A stretch of DNA of 64,000 nucleotides. It comes from a virus. Numbering within the stretch: the stretch's first letter is position 1; each line of letters opens with the position of its first letter. The stretch lies in IMG/VR virus record IMGVR_UViG_3300040801_002721. One strand, given 5' to 3'. This document shows, one piece after another, positions 6,554 to 61,643 of the stretch. A model generated the notes under the pieces. The model saw nothing but the letters and a program-made list of their open reading frames with translations, ran no database searches and was not told where the DNA came from. Position numbers and translations under genes: made by a program.

Positions 6554-8154
6554 TGAGCACACAAGATACGGTACCAGCAGGGTGCATACAGTTAGGTGAC
6601 GGTACGATCAAGTGCCCCGATACCAATGCGTCAGATGTTTGTAAGCCATGGAAGCTCCAAGATTCCAGAGATGCCTGTATCCAAGAAGACTACGCTAACG
6701 AAGCACTAAACATCGGTGGCGCCACTGCCAACGTATACAAGCTCCTTGGCGTTCATGAACAATCGCGTCTCGTTGATCAGACAGGACGTGGCGAAGCAAT
6801 TTCTGGTGGCGAACTGACAGGCTTTCCTGCTGCAAACGCTTTCACGGATGAATGTACAGTTTGGCGATCATCACAGCGCGGCGACAACGTTACGGCGCAA
6901 TCATACATTGGTTACGACTTTGGCGTAATCAAGATCACAACAGATCGACAGCGCCACGGCGACGCTCGGCCAGAGACTCGCGACATAGCAACGATCCGCA
7001 TCAAACAATTGTCGACGACCAACAATCGCGCAACTAAGGTTCGCATCGAGCGTTCACAGGATGGGCAGAAATGGTATGGCGTTGAGGTGGTTGATCTCGC
7101 TGATGACGACTCGCTCCAGACGCTACATATTCGACGCTCGGTTCCATCAAGATATTGGCGCTTGCGTCCTCTTGAATTCAATGGTGGCCCAGGTGATTTC
7201 TGGGGCGTCGTTGCTCTTGAGATGTCCGACTATGAACTAACGCGTCTCGACAACGTTCAAGATCGACTACTTCTCGAAAACCGTAACCGCGACTATATGG
7301 ACACACCGATCGCGTTGAAGGTGTCTTATGATCTAATCGACGTGCAGACAGAATTGTCTCGCTTCGGAATTGAATTACCGTCGCAGTCGTATTACATGAC
7401 CGTCGGTTTTGCTTCATGCGTCGCCGCGCTCGGTCGTCCTTTTGTTATCGGAGACATTATCGAGCTGCCTAGCGAGGCACAGTACAACACATCACTAGAC
7501 CCAATCAAGAAGTATCTTGAAGTTGTTGATGTGGGTTGGAGTACGGAAGGCTATACAACCGGTTGGAGACCAACACTTCTCCGTATCATTACACAGCCAA
7601 TGCTTGCGTCGCAGGAGACACAGGACATCGTTGGAGACTTTGCTCGTCAGGTAGATGGAACTGGATTGTTCAACATTGACGACGGCAATCACCCAATCTT
7701 CCAAGATTACTCTGAACAGGCGCCCCGCGTTGATGCTGTTTCTCGCAATACCGATAACGTCCCACAGCGTGGGGCGGATGCAAGCAACGAACTGCGGTCT
7801 TTCTCGGAAGATGAACTACAGACAGCTGAAGATGCTGGTGTTAACATTCAGAAGCTGTCATACAATCCAAACGGTCTATATGTTGAAGATGCGGTCCCAC
7901 CAAACAACGAAGATTTCACAATGGGCGACACATACCCTGAGAATCCCTCCGACGGTGATTATCACCGACTGACGTACAGTGGCGTTGCTGAAGATGTGCC
8001 CGCGCGACTATACAGGTATTCTAGCGCTAAAGGTCGTTGGATTTACCTCGAAACTGATCGGCGGTCCGAGTTCGATGGGACGCGCAAGAAGCTACAAGAA
8101 TTCATCACCCATCCTAACGCTGTGGCGAATAACAAGATCCTCGATGATAAATAG
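6553..8154 (+). CDS. gp14: Neck protein gp14 with an inserted discoidin (F5/8 type C)-like domain
   Basis: ELSRFGIELPSQSYYM...GRPFVIGDIIELP is gp14-like; insert has WRS...YIGYDFG...ERSQDGQKW...SRYWRLRP. Confidence 0.8.
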   Translation: MSTQDTVPAGCIQLGDGTIKCPDTNASDVCKPWKLQDSRDACIQEDYANEALNIGGATANVYKLLGVHEQSRLVDQTGRGEAISGGELTGFPAANAFTDECTVWRSSQRGDNVTAQSYIGYDFGVIKITTDRQRHGDARPETRDIATIRIKQLSTTNNRATKVRIERSQDGQKWYGVEVVDLADDDSLQTLHIRRSVPSRYWRLRPLEFNGGPGDFWGVVALEMSDYELTRLDNVQDRLLLENRNRDYMDTPIALKVSYDLIDVQTELSRFGIELPSQSYYMTVGFASCVAALGRPFVIGDIIELPSEAQYNTSLDPIKKYLEVVDVGWSTEGYTTGWRPTLLRIITQPMLASQETQDIVGDFARQVDGTGLFNIDDGNHPIFQDYSEQAPRVDAVSRNTDNVPQRGADASNELRSFSEDELQTAEDAGVNIQKLSYNPNGLYVEDAVPPNNEDFTMGDTYPENPSDGDYHRLTYSGVAEDVPARLYRYSSAKGRWIYLETDRRSEFDGTRKKLQEFITHPNAVANNKILDDK

Positions 8155-8159
8155 TCTTC

Positions 8160-8936
8160 ATGACTAACATTGTTGACGATCCTACCTTCTTCTACGACGA
8201 GCAAATCCGACGCTATGTCCTCCAGTTCATGGCAATCTTCGCTAATATGTACGTTGAGTTTGGTAAGAGTGATGCGCGCGACGAAGCGCTGGTACCTGTT
8301 CACCTTACGTACGGCTACAAGGATCGTGTAGTTGCTCACATCTTTGGTGAGAATACTCAAAACAAGCCGCTGCGACTTCCAGCAATGGCAGCCAATCTGA
8401 TGAATATCAATCTAGCTGCAGACCGCTCGAAAGGACTGCAGATGTCAAGACGCGATACGTATTTGCCCAACCAAGGCATTCTCCCCGATGACATCAAGAC
8501 ACTCGAGCAGCGGATGCCTATTCCATACAACTTTGATTTTGATCTCGCGATCATGACAACAAACCTAGATGAGCATTGGCAGATCCTTGAGCAGATACTA
8601 GTGCTGTTTGATCCAAGCCTTACAATCCAAACCAGCACCGATACGTTTGATTGGAAGAAGTTGCACACGGTCGATCTAACAGGAATCAACTCCGAGCAAA
8701 ACTACCCAGTAGGGGGCGATCGTCGTATCATCGTAACGACCCTACAATTCGTTGCTAAGGGATGGCTTGCGCTGCCGGCTAAGATTCGCAACGACTTCAT
8801 CAAGAATATTCAGCTTCGTGTAGGTTTGGTCAGCACAGCAACGGCAGGATCGGAAGATATTATTGCGGAACTTGATGCGGGTGGGTTTGAGTACAACACT
8901 GAGTTTGATTTTGAAAGCGAAGTTGATTTGCGTTAA
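8160..8936 (+). CDS. gp15: Tail terminator / sheath stabiliser gp15
   Basis: FFYDEQIRRYVLQFMAIF, LRLPAMA, PIPYNFDFDLAI, QILEQILVLFDP motifs and synteny. Confidence 0.9.
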   Translation: MTNIVDDPTFFYDEQIRRYVLQFMAIFANMYVEFGKSDARDEALVPVHLTYGYKDRVVAHIFGENTQNKPLRLPAMAANLMNINLAADRSKGLQMSRRDTYLPNQGILPDDIKTLEQRMPIPYNFDFDLAIMTTNLDEHWQILEQILVLFDPSLTIQTSTDTFDWKKLHTVDLTGINSEQNYPVGGDRRIIVTTLQFVAKGWLALPAKIRNDFIKNIQLRVGLVSTATAGSEDIIAELDAGGFEYNTEFDFESEVDLR

Positions 8937-8950
8937 GTTTGGTATAGTGA

Positions 8951-8958
8951 CATAAATA
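8951..8958 (+). promoter_or_regulatory. Late promoter (CATAAATA) of the sheath gene
   Basis: TAAATA core; SD GGAG precedes 9012. Confidence 0.75.
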
Positions 8959-9011
8959 CCCACGTTATACACTCGCAGTATACAGTTAAGAAGTAATCAG
9001 GAGAAACAAAA

Positions 9012-11804
9012 ATGGCTCTAGTAAGTGCAGGTGTAGAAGTTACAATCGTCGATGAGAGCTTCTTCGTACCAGCCCAGGCACCAACCGTACCGCTGATCTT
9101 CGTCGCGACAGCTGACGAAAAGACACAGCCAGATGGTGAGACCCCAGCGGCTGCTACGTATGAGCACGATGTCGTACGTACCGTAACCTCTCTCAACCAA
9201 AGTCAGGCGCTGTATGGTACACCTCGATTCCTCGAAGATTCGAGCGGCAATCAGCAGCACGGTGATGCTCGCAACGAGTATGGTCTACTCGCCCTCAACT
9301 CTTTCTTGGGTGTAGGTAACCTTGCGTACGTTGTTCGAGCTAACGTCAATCTCAACGACGATCTCGAAGACATCCGTGCGATCTGGGATCGGAAGATGGA
9401 AGAGGCAGCGATTGTCCTAGAAGCTTCAGCGACAGCTTTCATCACCGAGTACAACGAAGTGAACAACTTCGTACCATCGAACCCTAACTTCAAAATCACC
9501 TTGTCCAAAGATGAGTTCTTGTCGCTTGCTCAAGAAGCTACAGATTCTGTTTTCGAAAGTTTCTCCTTCCAGAATTCTGAAGACAACTTCTACGACGATA
9601 ACACAACTCCTGTATCTGCGACGGCCGGCCACCAAGTCATCGACATGGGTGGATCGGTAAACCAGGGTGAGCAGTTCCTTGACTTCTTGGGAACGATTAA
9701 CTCTGCTTCGCAAGTAATCAACGTCGGCGGCGCTGTTGTCGGAGCCACGGCAACGGGTCTTGATAACGATGCAACTGTCTACGATCTGCGTGTTACTGTG
9801 GATGGTACTCTGAACTCCGTCTCGATCACTGGTTCAGCAGCTCAAACGTATTCAGCGCTCATCACAGAGCTCAACGCAGGCCTGACAGGCGCAACTGCTG
9901 AACTTCTGGGTGGAAACGTTCGTATCATCTCCGATGATACGACTTCAGCGTCCTCGATCGGAATCACCGAAGGTGTGGGACCAGATCCACTTCTTGCTGC
10001 ACTAACAGACTTCATCACTGTCGAGTCCTCGACGCTGGGTGGCGCAAATCCAACGGGCCTTCCCGACACGTCGACAACGTTCTCGATGAACGTAGCCGTC
10101 AACGGTGGTGCACCACAGGCTCTTACAGTTCAAGGACAGAACGCTCAAACATTTGGTGAACTGATCGTACAGCTGAACTCACAGCTAGTTGGCGCGACTG
10201 TCACACTCTTCGAGGACGGTAACATCCTCATTGAGTCTGATCTTGTCGACGCAACGTTGTCAGCAATTGCTATCACAGACGTATCGCTCCTATCAGCATT
10301 GTCTGGCTTCAGCGCCGTTGGTGTGGCTACAAACAACATCACAAACCCAACTGGTTTGCCGAATACCGCTAGCCTGCTAACTGCATCAATCACAGTCGAT
10401 GGAATCCCATATGCACTACAGATTGCAGGTAACGCAGCACAGACGTTCGGTACACTGCTGCTAGAACTCAACACCGACCTTGGTGGTGTAGCAACGGCAG
10501 CGATTGGCGATGGCGTTACAGCCACAAACGGTTACGTTGTTCCAAACGGACAACTAGCTGTTGTCAGCGCAACAACTGGTATCGCTTCGGAAGTGTCTAT
10601 CACAGACGTTGACCTGTTCGGCAGTCTACGAGGCTTCAACAGCTTGCTGGTGCCTTCGGTCGGCCTGCCTGCTAACCTAAACCTTCAGGTATTCGGCAAC
10701 GGCTACGATCAACCGGCTACTGGCGTGTACCTTGGACTGGAAGGCATTGCTGCGGAGTGGGAGACAAACCTACTTGGATCTGCAGTGCCAGGTCAGTTCA
10801 CAGCCGAAGAGGCAGCAGCTACATTGCTAACAGCAGCCGACGATTACAAGTTTACGGTCGAGTTCCTCAACGAGACGAGCCTTGGTGCTAACGACGCTGC
10901 GCGCCGCGTTGCTGTTACGACAGCTCTACAGGCATCGATCAACAGCAACACTGAGGTGCGCTCGGAGAACTTCGAGTACAACTTGATTCTTGCTCCAGGC
11001 TACCCTGAGGTAGTTGACGAGCTGATCGCTCTGTCTGTTGACATCAACGAGGAAGCGTTCGTTATCGCGGATACACCAAACAATCTAAATCCTGATCAGG
11101 TTGTCAATTGGTCGAACACGACTGAGCGATTCCGCTCACCAGGCGTAGCTTACTACTACCCATGGGCCCTACAGTCCAACCTAGACGGCACGAACGTTGT
11201 CGGTGCTCCTTCGGGTGTCGCGCTCCGCACATACGCATTCAGCGACAACACTTCCGAGCTCTGGTTCGCTCCAGCAGGAACTCGTCGCGGTCTGATCTCT
11301 GGTGTCTCGGAACTAGGTTACGTACAAGGTACTCTGGGAACGGCAACAACGTTCACACCAGCAAACCTCAACCTGGGTCAGCGTGATAACCTTTACAAGG
11401 ATCTCACGAACCTGAACCCACTGGCGTTCTTCGTCGGCAGAGGATTTGTGGTTTGGGGTCAGAAGACGTCGTCGCCAGACATCAGCGCACGTAACCGTGT
11501 AAACGTTGAGCGCCTGCTGCGCTTCATGAAGCGTCAGCTACGCAAGAGCCTACTATCGTTCGTCTTCGAACCAAACGATACACTAACGCGCGACAACGTC
11601 AAGGCGCTGGTCGACAACTTCCTAGGTGACCTAGTAGTCCGTCGAGCACTGTTCGACTTCGCGACTGTCTGCGATGAGAGCAACAACACGCCTGATCGTA
11701 TCGACCGTAACGAACTATACGTCGACATCGCGATCAAGCCTGTGAAGGCTGCGGAATTCATCTTCGTGCCAATCCGTGTGGTAACAACGGACGCGGATAT
11801 CTAA
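9012..11804 (+). CDS. gp18: Tail sheath protein gp18 with a large internal insertion of three repeats
   Basis: LVSAGVEVTIVDES N-terminus; WFAPAGTRRG, VVWGQKT, RVNVERLLRFMK, FVFEPND, DESNNTPDRIDRNELYVDIAIKPVKAAEFI C-terminus. Confidence 0.95.
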   Translation: MALVSAGVEVTIVDESFFVPAQAPTVPLIFVATADEKTQPDGETPAAATYEHDVVRTVTSLNQSQALYGTPRFLEDSSGNQQHGDARNEYGLLALNSFLGVGNLAYVVRANVNLNDDLEDIRAIWDRKMEEAAIVLEASATAFITEYNEVNNFVPSNPNFKITLSKDEFLSLAQEATDSVFESFSFQNSEDNFYDDNTTPVSATAGHQVIDMGGSVNQGEQFLDFLGTINSASQVINVGGAVVGATATGLDNDATVYDLRVTVDGTLNSVSITGSAAQTYSALITELNAGLTGATAELLGGNVRIISDDTTSASSIGITEGVGPDPLLAALTDFITVESSTLGGANPTGLPDTSTTFSMNVAVNGGAPQALTVQGQNAQTFGELIVQLNSQLVGATVTLFEDGNILIESDLVDATLSAIAITDVSLLSALSGFSAVGVATNNITNPTGLPNTASLLTASITVDGIPYALQIAGNAAQTFGTLLLELNTDLGGVATAAIGDGVTATNGYVVPNGQLAVVSATTGIASEVSITDVDLFGSLRGFNSLLVPSVGLPANLNLQVFGNGYDQPATGVYLGLEGIAAEWETNLLGSAVPGQFTAEEAAATLLTAADDYKFTVEFLNETSLGANDAARRVAVTTALQASINSNTEVRSENFEYNLILAPGYPEVVDELIALSVDINEEAFVIADTPNNLNPDQVVNWSNTTERFRSPGVAYYYPWALQSNLDGTNVVGAPSGVALRTYAFSDNTSELWFAPAGTRRGLISGVSELGYVQGTLGTATTFTPANLNLGQRDNLYKDLTNLNPLAFFVGRGFVVWGQKTSSPDISARNRVNVERLLRFMKRQLRKSLLSFVFEPNDTLTRDNVKALVDNFLGDLVVRRALFDFATVCDESNNTPDRIDRNELYVDIAIKPVKAAEFIFVPIRVVTTDADI

Positions 11805-11813
11805 GGACACCGC

Positions 11814-11821
11814 GATAAATA
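11814..11821 (+). promoter_or_regulatory. Late promoter (GATAAATA) of the tube gene
   Basis: TAAATA core upstream of 11847. Confidence 0.75.
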
Positions 11822-11846
11822 CAGCGTAACTTAAAGGGAAAGTAAT

Positions 11847-12434
11847 ATGGCAACTATCAACGACATCGGAATTCCTGGAGTAGGTACAGGTATCCTACAG
11901 CCAAAACAGAAGAACAAGTGGCGTGTAACCTTCGCTAATTTGGGCGGTGGTGCTGACGCGCAGCCGCTTTCCCTTCAGGCTGTTACGGTAACTCGCCCTT
12001 CGATCACGTTCGATGAAGTACAGCTCGATCGTTACGTTTCGCGTGCGTTCATCGCTGGTAAGTACACGTACGAACCAATGCAGATCACATTCGAAGACGA
12101 TGTAACAGGACAGGCATCGCAGGTCCTACAGGATCAGCTACAGACGCAGCAGTTCTTGATTGGTCAGGAAGGTGCTTTCCTCGCCACATCAGGCGAAGGT
12201 TCGCTGTACAAGTTCGTCACATATCTCGACATGCTGGATGGTAACGATCAGCAAATTGAGCGTTGGACGATTGAAGGCTGCTTCATCGCAAGCATCGATT
12301 ACACAGACCTTGACTACGCAGATGCGGAGAAGGTCCTCATCAACACCACAATTCGTTACGACCACGCTCGCCAGAACCTCGGCGGCTACGACCAGGGTCA
12401 GGGCGTTGCACTTGGTGGTGCTGGTCGAGAGTAA
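11847..12434 (+). CDS. gp19: Tail tube protein gp19
   Basis: ILQPKQKNKWRVTF, AGKYTYEPMQITFEDD, ERWTIEGCFI, IRYDHA; follows the sheath gene. Confidence 0.9.
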   Translation: MATINDIGIPGVGTGILQPKQKNKWRVTFANLGGGADAQPLSLQAVTVTRPSITFDEVQLDRYVSRAFIAGKYTYEPMQITFEDDVTGQASQVLQDQLQTQQFLIGQEGAFLATSGEGSLYKFVTYLDMLDGNDQQIERWTIEGCFIASIDYTDLDYADAEKVLINTTIRYDHARQNLGGYDQGQGVALGGAGRE

Positions 12435-12501
12435 GTTTAGCGTCCATCAGAGGAAATGGAAGTCTAAGTCGAAACACAAGGAAGTTGATTTCTTGGACGC
12501 G

Positions 12502-12528
12502 AAGGGGGCCTGCAGGCCCCCTTTTTTT
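12502..12528 (+). terminator. Rho-independent terminator after gp19
   Basis: AAGGGGGCC-TGCA-GGCCCCCTT followed by a T-tract. Confidence 0.85.
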
Positions 12529-12547
12529 ATCTGCGATAAATACATTC

Positions 12548-13654
12548 ATGGCATCAGATCCGCGAAGATTCTTAACTAACCCTGTAGTCCGCAAGGTTGC
12601 TAACGCTATACCTGGCGGGAATCTTGTCGTTCAAGCGTCCGACACATTAGCAGAACTACAGGATTGTCCTCCTTCGCTGAAAGGCAACAGAGTGACAATT
12701 GGATGTCCTTCGCCATATGCTATCGATCTGATTTCTCGCGCGCCAAAGCATAAGTTCATGTTTGTGATGGAGGTGGTAGTTAGTCCTCCATTCAACGAGG
12801 TGTTCCCTCCTCAAATGCTTGAAGATTTGACGTTTGTTGTTAAGCGACATGCTCGGCCAAATGTCAATATCGACTACGAAGAAGTTAACCTCTACAACTA
12901 CCGCACCAAGGTAGCAAAGCGTATTGAGTACCAGCCAGTAACTGTTGGATTCTATGACGACATCCAATCAGGTGCTCTTGCGTTCATTCAGCGCTATCTT
13001 GAAGTTACTTCTCCGTCCACGCGCATTGGTGCCAATACAGCTTTGTACAAGTCATTCGAAGAACTAGGCATGGCATATGGCGACAATCAAGATGGCCAAG
13101 CAGGCACTACTACATCGGGTCACATTGACGGCTTCTCGATGTTTGGCGATGCTCTAGGAGAACGCGACACGTCGATCATTAGTTACATCAACCTTTACCA
13201 TGTATACAGCGGCGGCACGTTTGTTGATGTGTACACCTATGCGAAGCCTAAAATCACAGAAGTGCAGCTCGACGATCTTGACATGACACAAACTGGCGAT
13301 GGTTCTGAGATCGCGTTCACATTCATGTACGACGCACTAAACATCGAAACGAAAGTACGCGCTGCCGAACTACGTACACGACTGCAGGATCTTACAGATG
13401 CTGGCAGCGAAACTCTCAACGTTCCTCGCTCGCTCGATAACGCTCTCACAAACGGGGGTGTGTTCGGTGCAGGCAATCCTGTCGTCAACCGCGTCACTAA
13501 TGCAGCAAACACGGCAACAGAAATTCTACAGGGTGGCCCAACAAGTCTTAGTGACGTGGCAAACATCTTTGGTGGTGGTAGTGAGTCGGGTGATCAGCCC
13601 GGACCGACACCAGCTGCTGGTGAAGTTGCAAGCTCCAACGATACGATTCCGTAA
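12548..13654 (+). CDS. Tail-tube-like baseplate/tube initiator (gp48/gp54-like); start revised to ATG 12548
   Basis: KHKFMFVMEV...RPNVNIDYEEVNLYNYRTKVAKRIEYQPVTVGFYDD is tube-fold-like; GATAAATA ends 5 nt before the ATG. Confidence 0.7.
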   Translation: MASDPRRFLTNPVVRKVANAIPGGNLVVQASDTLAELQDCPPSLKGNRVTIGCPSPYAIDLISRAPKHKFMFVMEVVVSPPFNEVFPPQMLEDLTFVVKRHARPNVNIDYEEVNLYNYRTKVAKRIEYQPVTVGFYDDIQSGALAFIQRYLEVTSPSTRIGANTALYKSFEELGMAYGDNQDGQAGTTTSGHIDGFSMFGDALGERDTSIISYINLYHVYSGGTFVDVYTYAKPKITEVQLDDLDMTQTGDGSEIAFTFMYDALNIETKVRAAELRTRLQDLTDAGSETLNVPRSLDNALTNGGVFGAGNPVVNRVTNAANTATEILQGGPTSLSDVANIFGGGSESGDQPGPTPAAGEVASSNDTIP

Positions 13655-13668
13655 GCGTAAATAGCCAC

Positions 13669-14103
13669 ATGGCTGGCTCATACAAACAAGGTGTATACAC
13701 ACCTCGCAACCCCGACAAATACGTAGGCGATCCTACCAAGATCGTTTTTCGCAGTTCGTGGGAGTTGTCAATGAACCAGTTTCTCGACAACAACCCTAAC
13801 ATCCTTAGATGGGGGTCTGAAGAGATCGCTATTCCATACGTCAAGCCTACCACAGGTCGAGTGCACAAGTACTACCCTGATTACTGGATCGAATTCAGAG
13901 ATCAAGAAGGAAACATCAAGCAGGAGATCATCGAAGTCAAACCGGATAGTCAAGTCAACGTCAGCAAAAAGAAGCGATTGACGGAATACGACAAGCTGAC
14001 GTACGTCATCAATCTCGCCAAATGGCAAGCCGCCACGGACTTCTGTAACAAGCACGGTATCAAGTTCCGAATTTTGACAGAGAACCAGATGTTTCGGAAG
14101 TGA
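13669..14103 (+). CDS. gp4: Head completion protein gp4 (TnsA-like nuclease fold)
   Basis: YTPRNPDKYVGDPTKIVFRSSWE, WGSEEIAIPY, HKYYPDYWI, IIEVKP, INLAKWQAA. Confidence 0.9.
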   Translation: MAGSYKQGVYTPRNPDKYVGDPTKIVFRSSWELSMNQFLDNNPNILRWGSEEIAIPYVKPTTGRVHKYYPDYWIEFRDQEGNIKQEIIEVKPDSQVNVSKKKRLTEYDKLTYVINLAKWQAATDFCNKHGIKFRILTENQMFRK

Positions 14104-14115
14104 TAAATACCAGCT

Positions 14116-14589
14116 ATGAGCAGCAAAAAAGAAATCGAAGTTCCAACAGAACACCCAATGGAAGATGTCTTTGGTATTGAGAAGGGCACAACGATGGTTC
14201 CCAAAACTGTCGTCAAGGGCGACTTGAAGCCACATGAAACTTACGACGATAAAGATAATGAAATCGACAGGCAGTTTCAGGAAGTATACGATCTGGCGTT
14301 GGGTGCGTTTGATGAGCAGCAAGAAGCTGCCGAAGTAATCGATCCAAAATTCAAAGCTCGGACAGCGGAAGTCGCTGCGCAGTTTCTAACCACGGCGCTA
14401 AATGCAGCTCAATCCAAGATGCAGCTTAAGCAACAGCGCGAGAAGCTTGAGATTTCTAAAGGACGTTTAGCGGGCGGAGTTGTAAATAATGGGAACATGA
14501 TCATTACTGATCGTAATTCCCTTCTCAAGTTGATGGAAGAGGATGACGACTTCGATGAAGCCATCGACGGAGACTACGAAGAGACATGA
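14116..14589 (+). CDS. gp16: Terminase small subunit gp16 (putative)
   Basis: Helical acidic protein (RTAEVAAQFL...NNGNMIITDRNSLLKL) located upstream of the large terminase. Confidence 0.7.
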   Translation: MSSKKEIEVPTEHPMEDVFGIEKGTTMVPKTVVKGDLKPHETYDDKDNEIDRQFQEVYDLALGAFDEQQEAAEVIDPKFKARTAEVAAQFLTTALNAAQSKMQLKQQREKLEISKGRLAGGVVNNGNMIITDRNSLLKLMEEDDDFDEAIDGDYEET

Positions 14590-16079: not shown

Positions 16080-16090
16080 CACCATAAAAG

Positions 16091-16111
16091 TACCCCCTTA
16101 AATAGGGGGTA
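16091..16111 (+). promoter_or_regulatory. Late promoter inside a hairpin at the terminase start
   Basis: TACCCCCT-TAAAT-AGGGGGTA stem; TAAATA at 16099-16104; last paired base is the A of ATG 16111. Confidence 0.7.
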
Positions 16112-18663
16112 TGTCAAGAGCGTTCAAAGATCCACAGATCAAGCGAGCAGGTACCGAAACAGAGTACACTGTTCAGCAGATCCGTGAGCTGAAGAAATGT
16201 AAGGCCGATCCAGTTTACTTCATCAGAAAGTACTGTCGCATTCAGCACCCAGTTCGCGGCGCCATTGCCTTTGAGCTGTATGACTATCAGGTTGAAATGA
16301 TTGAGAACTTCTTCAATCATACGAACAATATCGTTCTCTCGGCTCGTCAGACAGGGAAAGCCGTTCGCATCGATACGCGTATCCCAACGCCAGATGGTTG
16401 GACAACAATGGGAGAGGTTGAAGTTGGCGATCAAGTAATTGGCGCAGACGGTAATCCAACAACTGTTTCGTGGACGTCTGATGTCCACACACCGGAAGTG
16501 TGCTATAGGGTACATTTCTCGACTGGCGAGACCATTGACGCGTGTGCTGACCATCAATGGGAAGTTGAGTGGAAACACAAACGAGGCCCCCAAGTTGTAA
16601 CAACCCAACAAATGGTCGATGCGGGTGTTACAATCGGTAACAAAAACGAAAGCAGATTCAAAATCAGAGTTGCAGATGCTATCGAACTTCCAGAAAAGGA
16701 GCTACCAATTGATCCTTATACGCTTGGTGTGTGGCTTGGTGATGGTCATTCAGCACAAGGTAGACTGACCCTACACGAGAGCGATTGTTCAATTCTCGAA
16801 TGGTTGCCATATAACACAAAACAACGCACATATAAATATCAGCCTGGTATCTCAACGATAACCGTGTATGGGCTAGAAAAGCAGCTTCGTGAACTTGGTG
16901 TTCAAAACAACAAGCACATTCCCGTTTCGTATCTACGATCATCACGCGAACAACGGTTTGCTCTTTTGCAAGGGCTAATGGATACAGACGGCACGGTAGA
17001 CGGTATGGGTCGAGGGCAGTGCGACATCACGCTGTCCAACAAAACACTTGCTAATGATGTGTTCCATCTAGTATCGAGTTTGGGCATCAAGGCTACATTC
17101 CGCGAGCGGGTCGTGGGCGGCTTTGCGCGGTACGAAATCAAGTTCTCCGTGTATCGTGATGAATGCCCAGTATTTCGGCTTGAGCGAAAGTTGAACAAAA
17201 TGAAGCAGTCGCCCGACCCTCCGCGACAATTCAGCACCAAAAAGCGCTCCATTCAAAGGATTGAACGCATCGACAGTGTTCCGATGAAGTGTATTGGGGT
17301 GGACAACGCTGATAAGCTATTTCTATTGGGCGATAGTTGCATCCCTACGCACAACAGTACTGTTTCCTCCATGTACCTCCTGTGGTTCGCAATGTTCCAC
17401 TTCGACAAGACGGTTCTGATTGCATCGAACAAGAACAAGGGTGCAATGGAGATGATCGAGCGTATTCAATACGCATACAAGAATCTTCCGCATTGGTTGA
17501 AGCCGGGCGTTACCGACGATGGGTGGAACAAGCACGCTCTGAAGTTTGATAACGACAGCTCAATTGAATCCGAAGCGACATCTGAGAACTCTGGTCGTGG
17601 TCAGTCTATCTCGCTTCTATACCTCGACGAGTTTGCGTTCGTACCTCCTGCAATCGCAGAAGAGTTCTGGGCATCTATCGCACCTACGCTGTCTACAGGT
17701 GGTGACTGTATCATCTCCTCTACACCAAACGGCGACACGAACACGTTTGCTGAACTGTGGCGCGGTGCACAGGTTGAGGCGAACGACTTCATTGCATCAG
17801 AGGTGAGATGGGATCAACCACCAGGCCGCGATGAGCACTTCAAGGAGATGATGATCGCGAAGATAGGTGAGCGCAAGTGGCTACAGGAATACGAATGTGA
17901 GTTCCTCTCGTCTGACGCCCTTCTCATTGACTCAATGGTTCTCGCAAACCTCACGCCAATCGTCAGAAAGAACAAGCCAGAATTTGAGATCAATGATGTG
18001 AAGTTCTGGAAGCGACCACAATCGGGCGTTCAGTATCTTGTTGGTGTTGACCCAGCAACAGGTACAGGCGAAGACTTCACTGTCATCACGGTGTGGGAGT
18101 TCCCGTCAATGGAACAGGTGGCGATGTTTAGATCAAACACAATGTCGTCGGCTACCGTGTATCCAGTTCTCAAAAACTTGTTGAAGTTCCTCGAGCGAAC
18201 GGGCTCAACCGTCTACTTCTCAATCGAGAACAACGGTGTTGGTGAAGGTCTTATCGCTCTGTACGAAGCAGACGAAACGCCACCAATGGCCTCGGAGATG
18301 ATCTCTGAACCAGGCAAGAACCGGCAGGGTGTTACGACGACAGGTAAGTCTAAGATGCGCGCCTGTCTGAACCTGAAGGAGCTTGTCGAGAAGCGCAAGA
18401 TGACCATCAGGAGCGAGCTGTTGCTCAAAGAGATGAAAGAGTTCACACGCCGAGCTGCTGGATACGCGGCACGTCGTGGGAGCACCGATGACATTATATC
18501 GTCCGTCCTAATCGTCCTTCGTATCCTCGAGGAGATCGCATCGTTCGAACAGGAAGCATTTGATAAGATCCGCGCCACAGATGATTACACGTGGTCCGAA
18601 TCTGACGTAGTCCGCTATAATGAGGACGATCCTGACGATGGGCCTATGCCGCTGATCTTCTAG
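16111..18663 (+). CDS. gp17: Terminase large subunit gp17, intein-containing
   Basis: KCKADPVYFIRKY, SARQTGK/S Walker A, RGQSISLLYLDEFAFV Walker B, QEYECEF, YLVGVDPATG, DDIISS. Confidence 0.97.
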   Translation: MSRAFKDPQIKRAGTETEYTVQQIRELKKCKADPVYFIRKYCRIQHPVRGAIAFELYDYQVEMIENFFNHTNNIVLSARQTGKAVRIDTRIPTPDGWTTMGEVEVGDQVIGADGNPTTVSWTSDVHTPEVCYRVHFSTGETIDACADHQWEVEWKHKRGPQVVTTQQMVDAGVTIGNKNESRFKIRVADAIELPEKELPIDPYTLGVWLGDGHSAQGRLTLHESDCSILEWLPYNTKQRTYKYQPGISTITVYGLEKQLRELGVQNNKHIPVSYLRSSREQRFALLQGLMDTDGTVDGMGRGQCDITLSNKTLANDVFHLVSSLGIKATFRERVVGGFARYEIKFSVYRDECPVFRLERKLNKMKQSPDPPRQFSTKKRSIQRIERIDSVPMKCIGVDNADKLFLLGDSCIPTHNSTVSSMYLLWFAMFHFDKTVLIASNKNKGAMEMIERIQYAYKNLPHWLKPGVTDDGWNKHALKFDNDSSIESEATSENSGRGQSISLLYLDEFAFVPPAIAEEFWASIAPTLSTGGDCIISSTPNGDTNTFAELWRGAQVEANDFIASEVRWDQPPGRDEHFKEMMIAKIGERKWLQEYECEFLSSDALLIDSMVLANLTPIVRKNKPEFEINDVKFWKRPQSGVQYLVGVDPATGTGEDFTVITVWEFPSMEQVAMFRSNTMSSATVYPVLKNLLKFLERTGSTVYFSIENNGVGEGLIALYEADETPPMASEMISEPGKNRQGVTTTGKSKMRACLNLKELVEKRKMTIRSELLLKEMKEFTRRAAGYAARRGSTDDIISSVLIVLRILEEIASFEQEAFDKIRATDDYTWSESDVVRYNEDDPDDGPMPLIF
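16360..17355 (+). mobile_element. Class 3 intein (332 aa) with LAGLIDADG homing endonuclease in terminase
   Basis: Starts Ala (AVRIDTRIPTPDGWTTMG); block B ACADHQW; PYTLGVWLGDG and LLQGLMDTDG; block F MKCIGV; ends PTHN before Ser+1. Confidence 0.93.
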
Positions 18664-18665
18664 CG

Positions 18666-18694
18666 TTGACGTCGAGACCATTCTGTAGTATAAA
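18666..18694 (+). promoter_or_regulatory. Sigma70-like early promoter
   Basis: TTGACG-N17-TATAAA. Confidence 0.8.
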
Positions 18695-18733
18695 GAGGGT
18701 GTAGGCATTGGTGCCTCGTGGAGGAACGCAGAA

Positions 18734-18931: not shown

Positions 18932-18936
18932 AGATG

Positions 18937-18991: not shown

Positions 18992-20110
18992 ATGAACGAG
19001 AACAACCAGATCCGCCAGGCGTTTATCCGGTGGTTCAACAACGACTTCATGAACGATCCGCTGTACCGCGCGATGTGGAATACGGTCGAGGATTCGCCGT
19101 GGCATCGCGAGGCGAACGTCGGCGTCCACACGAACATGGTTGTGGGTGAGTACCTCGTCCGGACCGGTGAGGAGAGATGGTTCGATGTTCGTGGAGCGCT
19201 CGCATGTGCCTTCCATGACGTCGGTAAGCCGCCGTGCGAGATCACCAAGTTCCGTGAGGACCGTGGTGAGTACCGTGCATACCACGGACACGAGCTCGTG
19301 TCCGCACGACTGTGGGAGGACTGGGCGGTCCGTAACTGGGCAGTCCTTCGAGATCAGTTCGCACTGAGCGCCGAGTCGATCTACACGATCGGCTGGATGA
19401 TCGAGCACCACGTTCCGTGGGGTACGAAGAAGGACGCGAAGCTGGACGCACTCGCCGCAACCGCGTACGAGACGACCGTGTACGAACCGACGTGGCCGAA
19501 CGTACTCCGAGCGGACCAGTGGGGACGTATCAGCGATGACTCGCACGTGCGCTTCGAGCAGGCTGAGGAGTGGATCGAAGATCATTTCCTCCGTCGTCGG
19601 ACGCAGGAGTTTCGCTGGGTACCGTACAACCACGACAATGTGATCATGCTAATCGGCCCGCCGGGTGCAGGTAAGTCGACGTACCGACAGAAGCTGCTGG
19701 ATCAGCACGATGACGCTGTCGTGATCAGCATGGATGACCTCCGTGTTGAGTGGTACGGCGGTCCGTACGATCAGGCATTCGCCAAGGCTTCGAAGGATTC
19801 GTCCTTCAACGCCAAGGTGGATCAGGTCTACATCGATGCGCTTCGTAACCACAAGACGGTGATTCTGGACAACACGAACACGTCAGGCAAGGCTCGCAAG
19901 CGATGGATCGCTCCTGCACGAGCTCGTGACTTCCGCCTGACGGCAGTGCTGTTCCCGTCGACGTTGCAGCAGGTCCTTGATCGTCAGCGGACTCGTGACG
20001 ATAAGACGATCCCGGACAAGGTGGTTCGCGATATGTACAACCGTCTGTCGCTGCCGCTGTACGGCGACTTCGACACCATCACGGTGGTGGACTCAAACCT
20101 GCCCGCATAA
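18992..20110 (+). CDS. HD-domain phosphohydrolase fused to an AAA_33/polynucleotide-kinase-like P-loop domain
   Basis: SPWHREANVGVHT, AFHDVGKP, YHGHELVSA, EHH (CCA-enzyme-type HD); GPPGAGKST, ILDNTN, LDRQRTR (PNK-like kinase). Confidence 0.85.
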   Translation: MNENNQIRQAFIRWFNNDFMNDPLYRAMWNTVEDSPWHREANVGVHTNMVVGEYLVRTGEERWFDVRGALACAFHDVGKPPCEITKFREDRGEYRAYHGHELVSARLWEDWAVRNWAVLRDQFALSAESIYTIGWMIEHHVPWGTKKDAKLDALAATAYETTVYEPTWPNVLRADQWGRISDDSHVRFEQAEEWIEDHFLRRRTQEFRWVPYNHDNVIMLIGPPGAGKSTYRQKLLDQHDDAVVISMDDLRVEWYGGPYDQAFAKASKDSSFNAKVDQVYIDALRNHKTVILDNTNTSGKARKRWIAPARARDFRLTAVLFPSTLQQVLDRQRTRDDKTIPDKVVRDMYNRLSLPLYGDFDTITVVDSNLPA

Positions 20111-20118
20111 ATACCTGA

Positions 20119-20670
20119 ATGGACCTCAAGGTATTGCGCGGGCAGCGCATTCAAAATCAGCTCGACGAAGACTCAACGTACAATCAATTGTACACGGGGA
20201 TCGTACAGGGCTTTCCTGGCACACAGAAGCGACAGAACGCGACGGGCTCAGTAATTGTCCGTCGCGTGTCGTACGTTCCATATATCAACGATTCCGTACT
20301 CCGGGTCGAAAGTATAGTTAACAGTGGTCCGAACAAGTATGAACCTGTCATCATGTTTAGGGGTGTTGAGTTCAAGGATACGGCCGTCGGCAACGCTGTT
20401 ACGATTCGAGCTGCCGACGGCCAGGAGTACAATATCACGCCTATCTCACTGGCAGGCTCCCGGCTGAAAGTTCGCTGTGGTTGCCTCGACTTCTACCACC
20501 GTTTCAGCACGCAGAACTTTGCAGATGGTAGTCTGGAAGGAAACCCACCACCTCCGTATCAAGACAGAGATCCGAACAGAGGACCGGCGAATCCGACACA
20601 AACGCCCGGCGTTTGCAAGCATCTAATCAAGTTGGTGCAGGAGATGAAGAAGTCGGGGATCGTTACTTAA
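20119..20670 (+). CDS. SWIM-type zinc-finger protein
   Basis: KVRCGCLDF...PGVCKHLIKL (CxC...CxH); CATAAATA ends 5 nt before the ATG. Confidence 0.7.
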   Translation: MDLKVLRGQRIQNQLDEDSTYNQLYTGIVQGFPGTQKRQNATGSVIVRRVSYVPYINDSVLRVESIVNSGPNKYEPVIMFRGVEFKDTAVGNAVTIRAADGQEYNITPISLAGSRLKVRCGCLDFYHRFSTQNFADGSLEGNPPPPYQDRDPNRGPANPTQTPGVCKHLIKLVQEMKKSGIVT

Positions 20671-21586
20671 CGACCTTCCCGCCCCGCTTAAACTTTGGCG
20701 CTGGGGCGGTTGCTTTTTCTTCCTTGTGAAGACTCTCAAGTACAGCTTTTGCTCGAGCATCGCGTTCGTTATCCTTCTCGGCGATCGGGGTGGATGCCGG
20801 CTCTGGGGGGTTCTGTTTCACCACAGCAGCTGTTTGCTTCCTAGCCCTGGCGTGCTGTTGCGCGAGCTGCTGCTCGCGAAGTTTCTTACGTTCTGCTTCT
20901 TGTTTTTTGTGTTCGCGAATGATATTCTTAACTTTGCTATCATCGGTCTTGGCTAGTGCTGAAGCGCCTGTTTTCTGCTCTTCGGAGAGCAATTTCCTGG
21001 CAACCTTTCGCGCCTCGGCAAGAGGGTCAGCTTCTGGCTTAGCAACCGGCTCTGACTTGGCAACCGGCTTCTGTTCTTCGGTTACATCCTCGGACTTCGT
21101 TAGGCGAGAGATGATATCGCGTACTTGGTCACGAGTAACGTTGTCGCCCTCGTTCGCTGGCTCTTGGATTACACGACCGTTTGTTGAATCTACAGGCTCA
21201 ATCTTTTGCTCTGGTACTGGCTCAGACTTTTTCGGAGCTGGCTTCTCAACTTCTCGTGACTCAACGCGCATCTTCGCATCTTCAGTCTTGACATAGACCT
21301 CAGGCGACTTCTGTACGTTCAGTGTGCCACGGTGAGCTTCAAAATAGTAGCCGTCGATAACAGCTGTAACTTTGAACGTGTACGTACCAGCAGCCATAAA
21401 CTGCATCTTTGGAAGATCAATTCCCCATTTTGTGTCTTCTACGCGCTTGCAGTGAAACTGCATATCGAACGGCTGGGAACACACGCAGAAACATACTTTT
21501 GCATCACTGTCGTCGAGACCTTCGACCTGTAGGTCGAACTCAAAATAGTGTGGGCGACTGTTTGTGATCAAAAGATGTTCGTTCAT
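20663..21586 (-). CDS. Hypothetical late protein: N-terminal beta domain, charged low-complexity C-terminus
   Basis: 307 aa; minus-strand CATAAATA at 21609-21616 and SD AAGAGG. Confidence 0.7.
   Translation of the reverse strand: MNEHLLITNSRPHYFEFDLQVEGLDDSDAKVCFCVCSQPFDMQFHCKRVEDTKWGIDLPKMQFMAAGTYTFKVTAVIDGYYFEAHRGTLNVQKSPEVYVKTEDAKMRVESREVEKPAPKKSEPVPEQKIEPVDSTNGRVIQEPANEGDNVTRDQVRDIISRLTKSEDVTEEQKPVAKSEPVAKPEADPLAEARKVARKLLSEEQKTGASALAKTDDSKVKNIIREHKKQEAERKKLREQQLAQQHARARKQTAAVVKQNPPEPASTPIAEKDNERDARAKAVLESLHKEEKATAPAPKFKRGGKVVK
20679..20720 (+). terminator. Probable terminator at the junction of convergent genes
   Basis: CCGCCCC...GGGGCGG inverted repeat followed by TTGCTTTTTCT; lies within the 3' end of the opposite-strand ORF. 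Confidence 0.5.
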
Positions 21587-21622
21587 GGTGAGCCTCTTAT
21601 ACAGGATGTATTTATGCGGGTC

Positions 21623-22075
21623 TTATCTCTTCTTCCGGAAGTTCAATGCGCGAACAACGTTTTTGGACATACGAGTAAAGTTTGAAGCTGTAGCACGAAA
21701 CTTCTCTTCCGTCTTGTTGAGGAAGTTTATTATACGTACAACCATATTAGCTCTTCGAGGTGTAACAAGGTATTCTTTCTCTGTTTCAAAATCGCCAAGC
21801 TTCACGCGAATTACAACACTTCTAGCATCGTTGAAGAGTTTACGATCTTCGGGACGGACGAGATATGACGGCTCGCCAACAGGCTGATATAGATCGTGGA
21901 TAGCACCTGGCGCAAGAGGGTAGCTACCACCTGTCGGTCCAACAGGTTTGACCACAATCTCAAAGCAACCTGCAAGACTGAAGATGTTAGCTGTTATCAA
22001 CCCACCACTGCATGCTGGCAAGCAGCTAATGCCACCAGTAATGATCTGGGTGCGAACTTGCGCGGGCGTCAACAT
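21623..22075 (-). CDS. Hypothetical virion-associated protein
   Basis: 150 aa ORF translationally coupled to 22075-22653. Confidence 0.65.
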   Translation of the reverse strand: MLTPAQVRTQIITGGISCLPACSGGLITANIFSLAGCFEIVVKPVGPTGGSYPLAPGAIHDLYQPVGEPSYLVRPEDRKLFNDARSVVIRVKLGDFETEKEYLVTPRRANMVVRIINFLNKTEEKFRATASNFTRMSKNVVRALNFRKKR

Positions 22076-22653
22076 TACGGCTGCGGATCTCTCTCACAAA
22101 CCTCAGAAGTGCTGCCAACACCCGAGCTATCCTTCAGATCAAACACAGTCAGTGGTGTAATACCATCGTCATCAAACACAGTAAGCGTTTGCGCGGTCGT
22201 GTCGATACGTGTGCGGTTTGTTGAGTATTTGCGTACAGTGTCGATCAGAGCCTCGACTGTAGCGACATCAATCAACAATTGCTGCACATTATTGAATGTC
22301 GCATTGTGACGCCCACCCATGGTGTTGATGTCAAGGTAGTCAGATTGATCTGCTTCCCATACACCATCAGCAACTTCTTCGGGCTCCGCGGCGCAGCAGG
22401 CACCTTCTTGAAAGCGCTCATAAGGACTGGAAATAGTTACGCCTCCATCTGCGTCGTAGACGAAGTCTTCGCGCGGATCGTATCCATTTGCATCAGTGAA
22501 TTCGTACTTGTACCACCCGTTCGCAACTTCAACCATGACTCCGTCATCCACAACAAGCGTATCATCGCTTAAACGATAGATGTCAATTGTAGGAGACAGA
22601 CCTGTTACAGGCGTGCCATTGTTGCGAAACCTGGCAGCTATGACTTTTGGCAT
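22075..22653 (-). CDS. Hypothetical virion protein, Ig-like N-terminus
   Basis: TPVTGLSPTIDIYRL...NGWYKYEF; minus-strand TATAAATA at 22687-22694. Confidence 0.65.
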   Translation of the reverse strand: MPKVIAARFRNNGTPVTGLSPTIDIYRLSDDTLVVDDGVMVEVANGWYKYEFTDANGYDPREDFVYDADGGVTISSPYERFQEGACCAAEPEEVADGVWEADQSDYLDINTMGGRHNATFNNVQQLLIDVATVEALIDTVRKYSTNRTRIDTTAQTLTVFDDDGITPLTVFDLKDSSGVGSTSEVCERDPQP

Positions 22654-30298: not shown

Positions 30299-30313
30299 CG
30301 GATAAATAACACA

Positions 30314-45055: not shown

Positions 45056-45505
45056 ATGGAATACACATACACTTACACATCGGGGAACGGCACAGGCGAT
45101 CTTTACTGGGTCACCGCTAGCGGTAGATACAAATACTTTGACGGCAGCGGATGGGTTGATCTAGGCTGGTATCAAACAGGTAACACCTCGACCTTCGCAC
45201 CCCCGGCCATCGCCGCATCCAAGGAAGTAAACTGCACATGCATCGAAGATCACGATCTTATCACGGCGAGCGAATTCCAGAAGTTTGTTACGAAGCTCGT
45301 ACGTGATAAGAAAGGGGCACTACCTGACGTTGCTGACTGGAAGAAACTCAAGCAACAGATGGATCGGATCTATGATCCTGAAAAGTGCAAGTGTGGCACT
45401 TCCAGGTTACCCGAGGGTGTTGAGGAAGTAGATACAGACACATTAACGGTGCAGAAAATTCTTGACCTCGCAGATAAGATGAGAGAGAATGGTCTGCTAT
45501 ACTGA
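45056..45505 (+). CDS. Hypothetical protein (start revised to ATG 45056)
   Basis: SD AAGGAG. Confidence 0.7.
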   Translation: MEYTYTYTSGNGTGDLYWVTASGRYKYFDGSGWVDLGWYQTGNTSTFAPPAIAASKEVNCTCIEDHDLITASEFQKFVTKLVRDKKGALPDVADWKKLKQQMDRIYDPEKCKCGTSRLPEGVEEVDTDTLTVQKILDLADKMRENGLLY

Positions 45506-49432: not shown

Positions 49433-49443
49433 GGAGAATAATA

Positions 49444-51601: not shown

Positions 51602-51640
51602 GGCCGCCTAAATACGGTACAAGTTTTCGCGGATGGATAA

Positions 51641-56405: not shown

Positions 56406-56432
56406 ATACGGTATACCTAAAGAGGAAGGCAG

Positions 56433-59267: not shown

Positions 59268-59285
59268 TAGTATGATATCCATCAG

Positions 59286-59858: not shown

Positions 59859-59883
59859 ATACACTATACGCTTGGAGAACAGC

Positions 59884-60297
59884 ATGACATCCCTACTCGC
59901 TTCGATCAACAAAGTGGTTACCGAGGACCGCAAACCAACAATCCTCAACCTAACTGACAGTATGTCGGAAGTGTTATCTAAGGTCAAAGCAGCGGCGAAT
60001 CCCAAAACTGCAGCTGCTCAAGTGTCCAGGGGCGCCAAGCTCGTCGCGGCACGCGACCAGCTAATCAAGCTCGGCATGCTTTCAATGACCGGCAGCGAAG
60101 TGTCACTTACGTCCAAGGGCGAAGAGCTGATGACTGATAAAGGGCTGACTGACGATACAGGAAGCCTCACCCCGGAAGGTGAAAAGTTTGCTTATGGCAA
60201 GGAAGGAGCTGGTGCTGAGCGATCCGATGCAGAATTTGGTGCATTGGAAGGGTTCGATCTCCTACGATCTATAGCTCGACCTTCTGATTCCGAATGA
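59884..60297 (+). CDS. Hypothetical late protein, possible winged-helix
   Basis: TATAAATA 59854-61, SD GGAG; RDQLIKLGML...VSLTSKGEEL. Confidence 0.65.
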   Translation: MTSLLASINKVVTEDRKPTILNLTDSMSEVLSKVKAAANPKTAAAQVSRGAKLVAARDQLIKLGMLSMTGSEVSLTSKGEELMTDKGLTDDTGSLTPEGEKFAYGKEGAGAERSDAEFGALEGFDLLRSIARPSDSE

Positions 60298-60730
60298 TCT
60301 GAACACCAGCGGGGACTGGTTTTCTACGCCGACGCTTCACACTCCTCGTCTGCTCAATATCGAACTTTGGCAACGGACCAATCACACGAGTAACGAACTC
60401 GGTGTTCAGTGAGCGGTAGACCTTCGACGTCTCGCCAGCGATACCAAGTCGAGCAAACGCAATAGAGATTGGTACTGTCCCACACTCCTCGCTCTGGCTC
60501 CACTCATGCGCGGCCGTGATCAGTAGTTCTTCGTTCACATCCGCGGGCCCGCACAGGTCAAGAACATATGCGCGAATAGCCTTATCGTCGGAGTTGTCGA
60601 CAATATTCAGGGAGTGTCGCTTACGATACTGAATCAATGTAATGAACGGATATCCAGTATAGGTTTCTGGGTGGGGTTCAACGATTAGTGGATATGGATT
60701 TCCGCGTTTTGATCTTGTTCGACCTGACAT
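60269..60730 (-). CDS. Hypothetical protein
   Basis: 153 aa, SD AAGGT; basic C-terminus VKRRRRK. Confidence 0.7.
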   Translation of the reverse strand: MSGRTRSKRGNPYPLIVEPHPETYTGYPFITLIQYRKRHSLNIVDNSDDKAIRAYVLDLCGPADVNEELLITAAHEWSQSEECGTVPISIAFARLGIAGETSKVYRSLNTEFVTRVIGPLPKFDIEQTRSVKRRRRKPVPAGVQIIRNQKVEL

Positions 60731-60789
60731 GAGTTACCTTGTTCCAGCTGTGAGTCATAAATACCGTTGACTCTTAGTACGAGGTATAT

Positions 60790-61104
60790 ATGAGCTGTAA
60801 GCCACAACTAACCTTTATGGATTATATTCTACTTGATGAAAGTGCTAAGAGTCCATGTGATTTCATAAAAGACCCGGAACTTCGCAAGCAATGCAAGAAA
60901 ATGTACCGCAAAACGCCCCGTAATGTAACCTACGGTGCATGGTTTGGTGGTACAAAGGGTCATAGTGGTACTGGATCTGATCCTGGGTCTGGCACTAACG
61001 GGGGTCACGGACCAGGAGATGGGTCAGGCGGTGCAAACGGCGCTGGCGGAACTGCTGGTGGTTCAGGATCTGGTAGCGGGGGCAGTGCAGGTGGAGGTGC
61101 GTAA
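60790..61104 (+). CDS. Small late protein with a Gly/Ser-rich C-terminal tail
   Basis: CATAAATA 60756-63, SD GAGGT. Confidence 0.65.
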   Translation: MSCKPQLTFMDYILLDESAKSPCDFIKDPELRKQCKKMYRKTPRNVTYGAWFGGTKGHSGTGSDPGSGTNGGHGPGDGSGGANGAGGTAGGSGSGSGGSAGGGA

Positions 61105-61112
61105 ATAGTATC

Positions 61113-61643
61113 ATGTTAAAAGAAGCTATTCAAAAGATGATCGATGAGGGGGACATCCCACTAGTTTGGGATCGTAAACTTCCATACGTAGCTCAGAACC
61201 GATTCAACAAGAACGTTCGCAACGACGGCAAAGACCCAGTTGAGAACGAAGAGGAAGACGATTTCCTAGACGACGAAGAAACCATCGCAATGGATAATGA
61301 CGAAGAGATGGGCTTTGATGAAGAAGGGTTTGAAGACATTGATGGTGAAGGCGACTTCTCTGAGCTCGACGACGAAGATGACCCGGATCGTCAAGGTCTA
61401 ATTCGCGTAGTGCCGAACGCCCATCTTGTGTACAAGCGAGCTGCCGAAGACGGTACGTTCGAAGAGCTTTGGATCTATAACACGGGCGATTCTTTCGAAC
61501 CAGAACTCGAAACACGCCGCGCAATTCTAGCAGGTACAGACATCCCAGCGAACCGAATGCATTCCGAAGACGGCAGCCAGAAGTATTCAATCTGGACAGC
61601 CGGTAACGGTCAAATACTACATATTACAGGACTGCCTTCGTAA
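61113..61643 (+). CDS. Acidic late protein
   Basis: GTAAATA ends 5 nt before the ATG; long D/E tract. Confidence 0.7.
   Translation: MLKEAIQKMIDEGDIPLVWDRKLPYVAQNRFNKNVRNDGKDPVENEEEDDFLDDEETIAMDNDEEMGFDEEGFEDIDGEGDFSELDDEDDPDRQGLIRVVPNAHLVYKRAAEDGTFEELWIYNTGDSFEPELETRRAILAGTDIPANRMHSEDGSQKYSIWTAGNGQILHITGLPS

Follow-up and report, generated by a model that had tools for sequence, protein, structure and literature searches.

The stretch of DNA analysed here, referred to as the window (64,000 nt, IMG/VR virus record IMGVR_UViG_3300040801_002721), has a GC content of 50% and derives from an uncultured giant phage distantly related to T4, of which it holds the packaging, neck and tail module. 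The large terminase (TerL) displays at most 37% identity to the terminases of Asteriusvirus, cyanophages and the T4 group, and 51% identity, over part of the length only, to that of the Xanthomonas jumbo phage XacN1; a near-identity DNA search of a phage collection with the window returned no match. Eight open reading frames (ORFs) of the window, 144–850 codons long and all on the + strand, open with an ATG placed 5 or 6 nt after the hexamer TAAATA, seven of them without a Shine-Dalgarno (SD) sequence. An earlier reading of the letters alone (the sequence-only reading) had proposed that these genes are expressed from leaderless late mRNAs, and we argue below that this is probably so. Each of the eight sites was recovered at exactly the TAAATA and ATG positions which that reading had listed, as follows, together with a terminator that bears on one of them.

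8148–8162, + strand: TAAATA-N6-ATG of the gp15-like tail sheath stabiliser gene (8160–8936), SD energy +0.3
12501–12524, + strand: intrinsic terminator after the tail tube gene (10-bp stem, 4-nt loop, T-run), 12 nt before the box at 12537
12537–12550, + strand: TAAATA-N5-ATG of the tail-tube-like (gp48/54-like) gene (12548–13654), no SD
13658–13671, + strand: TAAATA-N5-ATG of the head closure (gp4-like) gene (13669–14103)
14104–14118, + strand: TAAATA-N6-ATG of the small terminase gene (14116–14589)
16099–16113, + strand: TAAATA-N6-ATG of the large terminase gene (16111–18663), which contains a putative intein
20108–20121, + strand: TAAATA-N5-ATG of the SWIM-like gene (20119–20670); the preceding ORF ends in the TAA of this box
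30303–30316, + strand: TAAATA-N5-ATG of a gene for a 343-aa protein without family match (30314–31345)
61102–61115, + strand: TAAATA-N5-ATG of a gene for an acidic 176-aa protein without family match (61113–61643); here too the box supplies the TAA that ends the preceding ORF

Five of the eight products were assigned through PHROGs, as head closure protein gp4, tail sheath stabiliser gp15, a tail-tube-like protein, and the small (TerS) and large terminase. Four of these agree with the labels gp15, gp4, gp16 and gp17 given from the sequence alone, while the gene labelled gp48/54-like is matched to the tail-tube-like family. The products of 20119, 30314 and 61113 had no family match in PHROGs. 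That of 20119 had been called a SWIM protein and does carry a CxC...CxH motif; since the spacer in this motif is unusually long and no Pfam match was found, the name denotes a resemblance only, and we write SWIM-like.

In seven of the eight ORFs no other start codon precedes the ATG in the open frame; at 12548 the sole upstream alternative is a TTG whose reading would pass through the terminator. Duplex energies with the anti-SD sequence lie between +1.6 and -4.0 kcal/mol at seven sites, compared to -5 to -12 for most other genes, so that the earlier statement that no usable SD precedes these ATGs stands for those seven. It does not stand in the same way for 61113, where the energy is -10.6 and a distant GGAGG lies 13–14 nt upstream. 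This GGAGG is encoded by the Gly/Ser-rich C-terminal tail of a small ORF (60790–61104), an arrangement that is kept in a related locus (L122).

The site at 12537 is, judged by its sequence context, the strongest of the eight cases. The nearest preceding ORF ends 113 nt away, and because there is no SD, no ORF within coupling range and a terminator upstream, the gp48/54-like protein most plausibly comes from a transcript that begins at the AUG. Its orthologues have N5 in both L001 and the closest relative of the window, G004 (60–88% amino acid identity, 50% GC), and their sites are preceded by a hairpin and T-run in L001 and by a T-run in G004. At 8148, where the TAG stop of the preceding ORF overlaps the box, N6 is kept in L001 and G004, with an identical spacer in the latter. 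The SWIM-like gene of G004 has its short-gap site after a terminator hairpin, and the N5 gap of site 61102 is kept in L122/G004 at 59% amino acid identity. Among the viral contigs searched we found no relatives of the 30314 protein, and site 30303 is thus without comparative support.

The number of such sites in the window far exceeds that expected from composition. Five copies of TAAATA-N5-ATG were counted where 0.31 were expected, and three of TAAATA-N6-ATG where 0.33 were expected; for neither pattern did any of 100 dinucleotide shuffles reach these counts (both patterns together, eight observed compared to 0.64 expected). The hexamer itself is also over-represented and strongly oriented, with 29 copies on the + strand and four on the - strand where Markov models predict 5–9. 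Sense-oriented positions upstream of genes account for 23 of the 29 + strand copies, the genes behind them including those for the sheath, tube, terminase, a gp13-like protein and fibres, and two of the four - strand copies precede - strand genes. From this distribution and its likeness to the T4 late box, TAAATA evidently is the late-promoter core of this phage. The sequence-only reading had invoked the T4 box TATAAATA itself, which is not what the window contains: only 4 of the 29 copies are the full TATAAATA, while 20 are ATAAATA, and as the base before the core is mostly A and never T, the box is better written (A/G/C)TAAATA.

Box-to-start gaps in the window fall into two classes, with eight at 5–6 nt, none at 7–21 nt and 17 at 22–108 nt, and about a third of the late promoters (8 of about 25) are thus of the short-gap kind. 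Nearly all members of the long-gap class, which includes the sheath, tube and gp13-like adaptor genes, are SD-led, so that the earlier claim of longer, SD-bearing leaders at other late genes holds. One copy of TAAATA, at 45006, has an ATG 8 nt behind it and was considered as an off-peak site; it was counted as long-leader because an ATG at 45056 that has an SD is more likely the start. Three long-gap promoters serve as examples here.

3527–3562, + strand: late promoter of the gp13-like gene (PHROG match), with a 10-bp hairpin (3530–3553) that pairs its GGAGG with promoter-overlapping sequence
8953–9014, + strand: TAAATA 53 nt upstream of the tail sheath gene (9012–11804), with AGGAG in the gap
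11816–11849, + strand: TAAATA 25 nt upstream of the tail tube gene (11847–12434), with an SD in the gap

Relatives of the window were collected by TerL (7 viral and 80 metagenomic loci, many on contigs of 250–380 kb), and gaps were counted over 88 stretches totalling 918 kb, with duplicate contexts removed, for ATGs opening ORFs of at least 100 codons, the reverse complement TATTTA serving as control motif. TAAATA preceded such an ATG by 5 nt in 88 cases and by 6 nt in 21, by each gap of 7–16 nt in only 1–5 cases, and by each gap of 17–33 nt in 6–21 cases, whereas the control was flat across gaps. The peak at 5–6 nt which the sequence-only reading had predicted for relatives is therefore present clade-wide. 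Short-gap sites occur in 58 of 83 loci, over a GC range of 32–50%.

The two gap classes differ in what surrounds the start codon and resemble each other in the box. At gaps of 5–6 nt the start codons are ATG (109), GTG (1) and TTG (1), compared to 200, 26 and 28 at gaps of 17–35 nt, and the median anti-SD energy is +0.3 compared to -5.9, only 6% of short-gap sites reaching -5 or lower. Adenine makes up 44.7% of codons 2–11 in short-gap genes and 36.3% in SD-led ones (p = 1e-10), and folding over the first 40 nt is weaker in the former (p = 0.002). Bacterial RNA polymerase prefers a pyrimidine at -1 and a purine at +1, and of 109 short-gap ATGs 97 (89%) directly follow a C or T. The flanks of the box are alike in both classes (A precedes in 57–82%, T in 0–1%, and C is favoured after the box). 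The shortest SD-led gaps, of 17–18 nt, have space for just an SD and its spacer. Very short leaders permit neither SD binding nor a 5'-terminal AUG, and the almost empty zone of 7–16 nt thus fits the rules of translation.

A candidate sigma factor for such boxes is encoded by relatives of the window. Matches to gp55 (phrog_234) were found in XacN1 (1.4e-36), G004 (3.2e-29) and a further relative, G001 (9.1e-24). In the last of these the gp55-like gene lies behind a consensus-like sigma-70 promoter (TTGACA-N17-TATAAT) and an SD (L091, positions 1414–1476); a promoter of this type is as expected if the gene is expressed before the late phase, with which its sequence would fit.

The cultured phage XacN1 (384.7 kb, 50.4% GC) also displays the spacing: the short-gap pattern occurs 19 times compared to 2 for the control, and when ORFs of at least 80 codons are taken into account there are 13 sites at gaps of 5–6 nt, none at 9–13 nt and a hump at 21–34 nt. 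The GenBank starts of ORF233, ORF234, ORF267 and ORF300 coincide with short-gap sites, ORF300 lying between the portal and prohead protease genes. In XacN1 (AP018399.1, 162627–163334, - strand) the chitinase gene ORF272 is annotated from 163262, and upstream of it are a terminator and then TAAATA-N5-ATG at 163334; the annotated start may be wrong, in which case the start at 163334 would add 24 codons. Enrichment of the short gap was absent from EJP2, RaK2, Slicko01 and Synechococcus phage B23, and modest in Pelagibacter phage HTVC008M (19 compared to 7). T4 has no TATAAATA placed 5–6 nt before the start of a long ORF.

These data bear on whether the pattern could have arisen by chance or by wrong start calls, with the true starts at SD-led codons elsewhere. 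Start codons were assigned computationally, and ORF272 of XacN1, annotated 24 codons downstream of a TAAATA-N5-ATG, is a reminder that assignments can differ. However, chance is at odds with the excess over expectation in the window and with the clade-wide spike over a flat control, and displaced starts are at odds with the protein data: tblastn matches and the TerL alignment extend to residue 1, where the methionine is an invariant column, some orthologues that carry TAAATA-N17–26 with AGGAG begin at the same residue as the short-gap forms, and the four XacN1 starts were annotated independently. Because of these statistics and the conserved N-termini we regard chance and wrong starts as excluded, leaving this explanation a negligible probability.

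A different possibility is that TAAATA is not a promoter at all and works at the RNA level, as a translation signal other than an SD such as an A/U-rich binding site for ribosomal protein S1. The motif is indeed A/U-rich and sits at a position compatible with an enhancer, before short-gap genes that are without SD. However, the same motif with the same flanks lies 17–108 nt before the SD-led sheath, tube and other late genes, where no ribosome-binding role is possible, and because it serves those genes from afar an RNA-level enhancer is unlikely. Against it also stand the placement of TAAATA directly after terminators at several sites, a 5-nt gap equal to the distance from box to +1 in T4, the match to the known core of the gp55 box (PMC1524935) and the presence of gp55 in relatives. 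We consider this explanation highly improbable.

Comparison of orthologues indicates that the two layouts replace one another. Short-gap sites were found for 18 of 58 TerS, 24 of 77 TerL, 19 of 36 SWIM-like, 2 of 24 gp15 and 2 of 47 gp4 orthologues, the gp4 site thus being seldom kept, and the remaining orthologues have either a box 17–82 nt upstream with an SD or no box; TerS orthologues with the long layout, for instance, have gaps of 18–82 nt and an SD. The short-gap orthologues differ among themselves almost completely in spacer and flanks, with 16 distinct spacers among 24 for TerL, 16 among 18 for TerS and 17 among 19 for the SWIM-like gene, and it is TAAATA, the gap and the ATG that are kept. 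For the gp48/54-like family, which was judged from raw contexts as tblastn fell short of the N-termini, two loci (L004/L005) have a 21-nt gap with GGGAG before the same N-terminus, MALDPRR. G004 has N6 at both gp15 and the SWIM-like gene, and N5 at both TerL and the gp48-like gene. No sheath (0 of 25) or tube (0 of 33) orthologue is short-gap, and these have the strongest SDs among the families, all 25 sheath orthologues showing leader plus SD with a mean SD energy of -8.3. The two-tier late programme envisaged by the sequence-only reading is thus supported insofar as sheath and tube are never short-gap while terminases and SWIM-like genes often are, a support which is correlative. This switching of layouts, with intermediate gaps avoided, constitutes a natural experiment on the minimum working length of a leader.

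We propose that host RNA polymerase carrying a gp55-like phage sigma factor would read TAAATA as a late promoter of the -10 type. As the T4 box TATAAATA occupies -13 to -6, TAAATA would lie at -11 to -6 and a gap of 5 nt would set +1 on the A of the ATG; a 6-nt gap would set it on the A or one base before. Clade-wide the 5-nt gap is four times commoner than the 6-nt gap. The short-gap late transcripts would then be leaderless, and ribosomes would recognise their 5'-terminal AUG and not an SD. That gp55-type promoters are placed so that these late mRNAs begin with the A of the ATG and have no leader is in our judgement probable. The suggestion from the sequence alone that +1 falls at or next to this A, and that the mRNAs are leaderless, gains computational support from the clade-wide peak, the nearly exclusive use of ATG, the lack of SDs, the pyrimidine at -1, the switching of layouts, the upstream terminators and the gp55 of relatives. 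We infer the exact +1, the translation of the leaderless RNA and its purpose from these patterns.

A related explanation accepts the boxes as true late promoters and departs from this proposal at translation: the RNA started at the ATG would serve only the genes farther downstream, and the first gene would be translated through read-through, coupling or SD-independent internal initiation. Much about the upstream ORFs is compatible with it. At six of the eight window sites a stop codon lies 5–15 nt before the ATG, at two of them as the TAA of the box itself, and the stop of an upstream ORF is within 20 nt at 26 of the 109 clade sites; other SD-less genes of the window are clearly dependent on coupling (e.g. 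the gene at 27822, with overlapping ATAATG). Because the upstream stop is so close, coupling could add to or replace leaderless translation at these six sites. However, coupling needs neither a fixed distance of 5–6 nt to a box, nor starts restricted to ATG, nor a pyrimidine at -1. It would also have to act where the upstream stop is more than 20 nt away (74 of the 100 sites for which an upstream ORF could be identified), at 12 sites that follow terminator-like hairpins, and at 12537 behind its strong terminator, far from any ORF end. We therefore think this explanation unlikely, although it deserves more weight than the two considered above.

Besides the stops close to six of the eight ATGs, several observations weigh against leaderless expression from gp55-type promoters. 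The +1 is placed solely by the spacing known from T4. Many of the 109 short-gap sites are orthologous and are not independent events. In G004 two gaps are off-peak, N8 for gp4 and N4 for TerS (L131, G004:C1:46001-66000, positions 9771–9787 and 10220–10232); gaps of 8 and 4 nt would imply a leader of 2–3 nt or a start off the A. The ATG at 61113 has its distant GGAGG inside the preceding coding sequence. A tblastn search of the 64-kb window detected no gp55, as expected for a piece of this size. Leaderless mRNAs are poorly translated in the well-studied Gammaproteobacteria, and profile searches for IF1 and IF3_C found neither in XacN1, G001 or G004 (the records of G001 and G004 being about a third complete), so that an explanation by phage-encoded initiation factors is unsupported.

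It is instructive to compare this arrangement with known systems. In T4 the late box TATAAATA at -13 to -6 is read by the sigma factor gp55 together with gp33 and the gp45 clamp, and the first box positions vary among T4-like phages, for example CTAAATA from -12 in Aeh1 (PMC1524935). The window resembles T4 in the TAAATA core with A favoured before it, in its sense-oriented placement upstream of virion and packaging genes and in the gp55 of its relatives. It differs in that the full TATAAATA is rare and in that about a third of boxes in the window and clade abut the ATG, whereas T4 gaps span 13–41 nt with a mode of 28. T4 late transcription is a textbook system and to our knowledge all known T4 late messages have SD-containing leaders. 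Our literature search found no paper describing a leaderless layout for T4-type promoters, and the XacN1 genome paper makes no mention of promoters, sigma factors, SD sequences or leaderless mRNAs.

The nearest precedent is the Thermus phage phiYS40, a large myovirus whose later genes are likewise expressed largely from leaderless mRNAs. We know of no gp55-type sigma factor used by this phage. The window and its clade differ in that short gaps are confined to about a third of the late promoters, alongside SD-led genes; a programme of the phiYS40 type was not found. As summarised in a review, the middle and late genes of phiYS40 are mostly leaderless and infection raises IF2 and lowers IF3 (PMC3594737), and in Deinococcus-Thermus leaderless mRNAs are common (PMC12340547). 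The cI mRNA of lambda transcribed from PRM is also leaderless, and leaderless translation in E. coli needs a 5'-terminal AUG (Brock et al. 2008, as cited in PMC5312081). That requirement matches the near-exclusive use of ATG at short gaps; the cI case, however, concerns one regulatory gene under sigma-70, compared to a class of late structural and packaging genes in this clade. Two giant phages with late transcription programmes of their own offer no parallel, as they have no leaderless late genes: the mapped start sites of phiKZ include no leaderless transcript (PMC8244752) and those of AR9 give 5' untranslated regions of 26–491 nt (PMC5312081).

Two purposes appear likely for such a layout. 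The first would be a low output suited to catalytic or low-copy proteins, and a low-output tier fits the division of the genes, which separates sheath and tube from terminase. The second would be a gate: without an SD, an ORF would give no protein from early, middle or read-through RNA, and its translation would await the firing of its late promoter. In the T4 genes e, soc, 49 and I-TevI, a hairpin hides the ribosome-binding site when the gene is read through on early RNA. As in those genes, protein would be made only from the late-promoter transcript; unlike in those genes, the short-gap gate would consist in the absence of an SD and not in a hairpin. We put forward only tentatively, and with more doubt than confidence, that the layout is a translational gate beyond lowered output which replaces the T4 hairpins for strictly late terminase and assembly proteins, and which may keep genes translatable when the host or the phage disables SD-dependent initiation. 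The suggestion from the sequence alone that leaderless transcripts could sustain translation under anti-SD or leader-targeting host defences is speculative.

A hairpin of the T4 kind does occur in the window, at the gp13-like gene. The predicted late +1 there, the A at 3538, lies inside the 5' arm, which fits a +1 at the sixth base after TAAATA, a reading for which we follow the precedent of the T4 late-only genes. At the TerL start a local 8-bp hairpin (16091–16111) holds the box in its loop and the ATG at its 3' end, and a conserved role in blocking translation on read-through RNA was considered for it. As the hairpin is missing from L001 and G004, it is at most a local feature.

If leaderless expression is confirmed, gp55-type promoters would routinely start on the AUG in a large and widespread clade of giant phages, and hosts whose translation otherwise relies on SD sequences would make essential phage products (terminase, tail parts) by the leaderless route. 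The dosage and timing of late genes would be set by a choice between two routes of initiation, which is testable in XacN1 on Xanthomonas. Gene callers and start models that rely on the SD would misplace starts in these genomes, the annotated start of ORF272 being a possible example.

Some further features of the module deserve mention. The large terminase (16111–18663) contains an insert of ~330 aa (about residues 85–415) with LAGLIDADG/homing-endonuclease domains, a composition consistent with an intein; L001 and L002 share this insert, and L003–L007 and G004 lack it. Between TerL and the SWIM-like gene, the gene at 18992–20110 encodes a C-terminal P-loop kinase domain of the AAA_33/Zeta-toxin-like type, and has an SD and no TAAATA box. 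Three - strand genes lie at 20663–22653 inside the + strand late module, two of them with a TAAATA box of their own, at gaps of 26 and 33 nt, and an SD.

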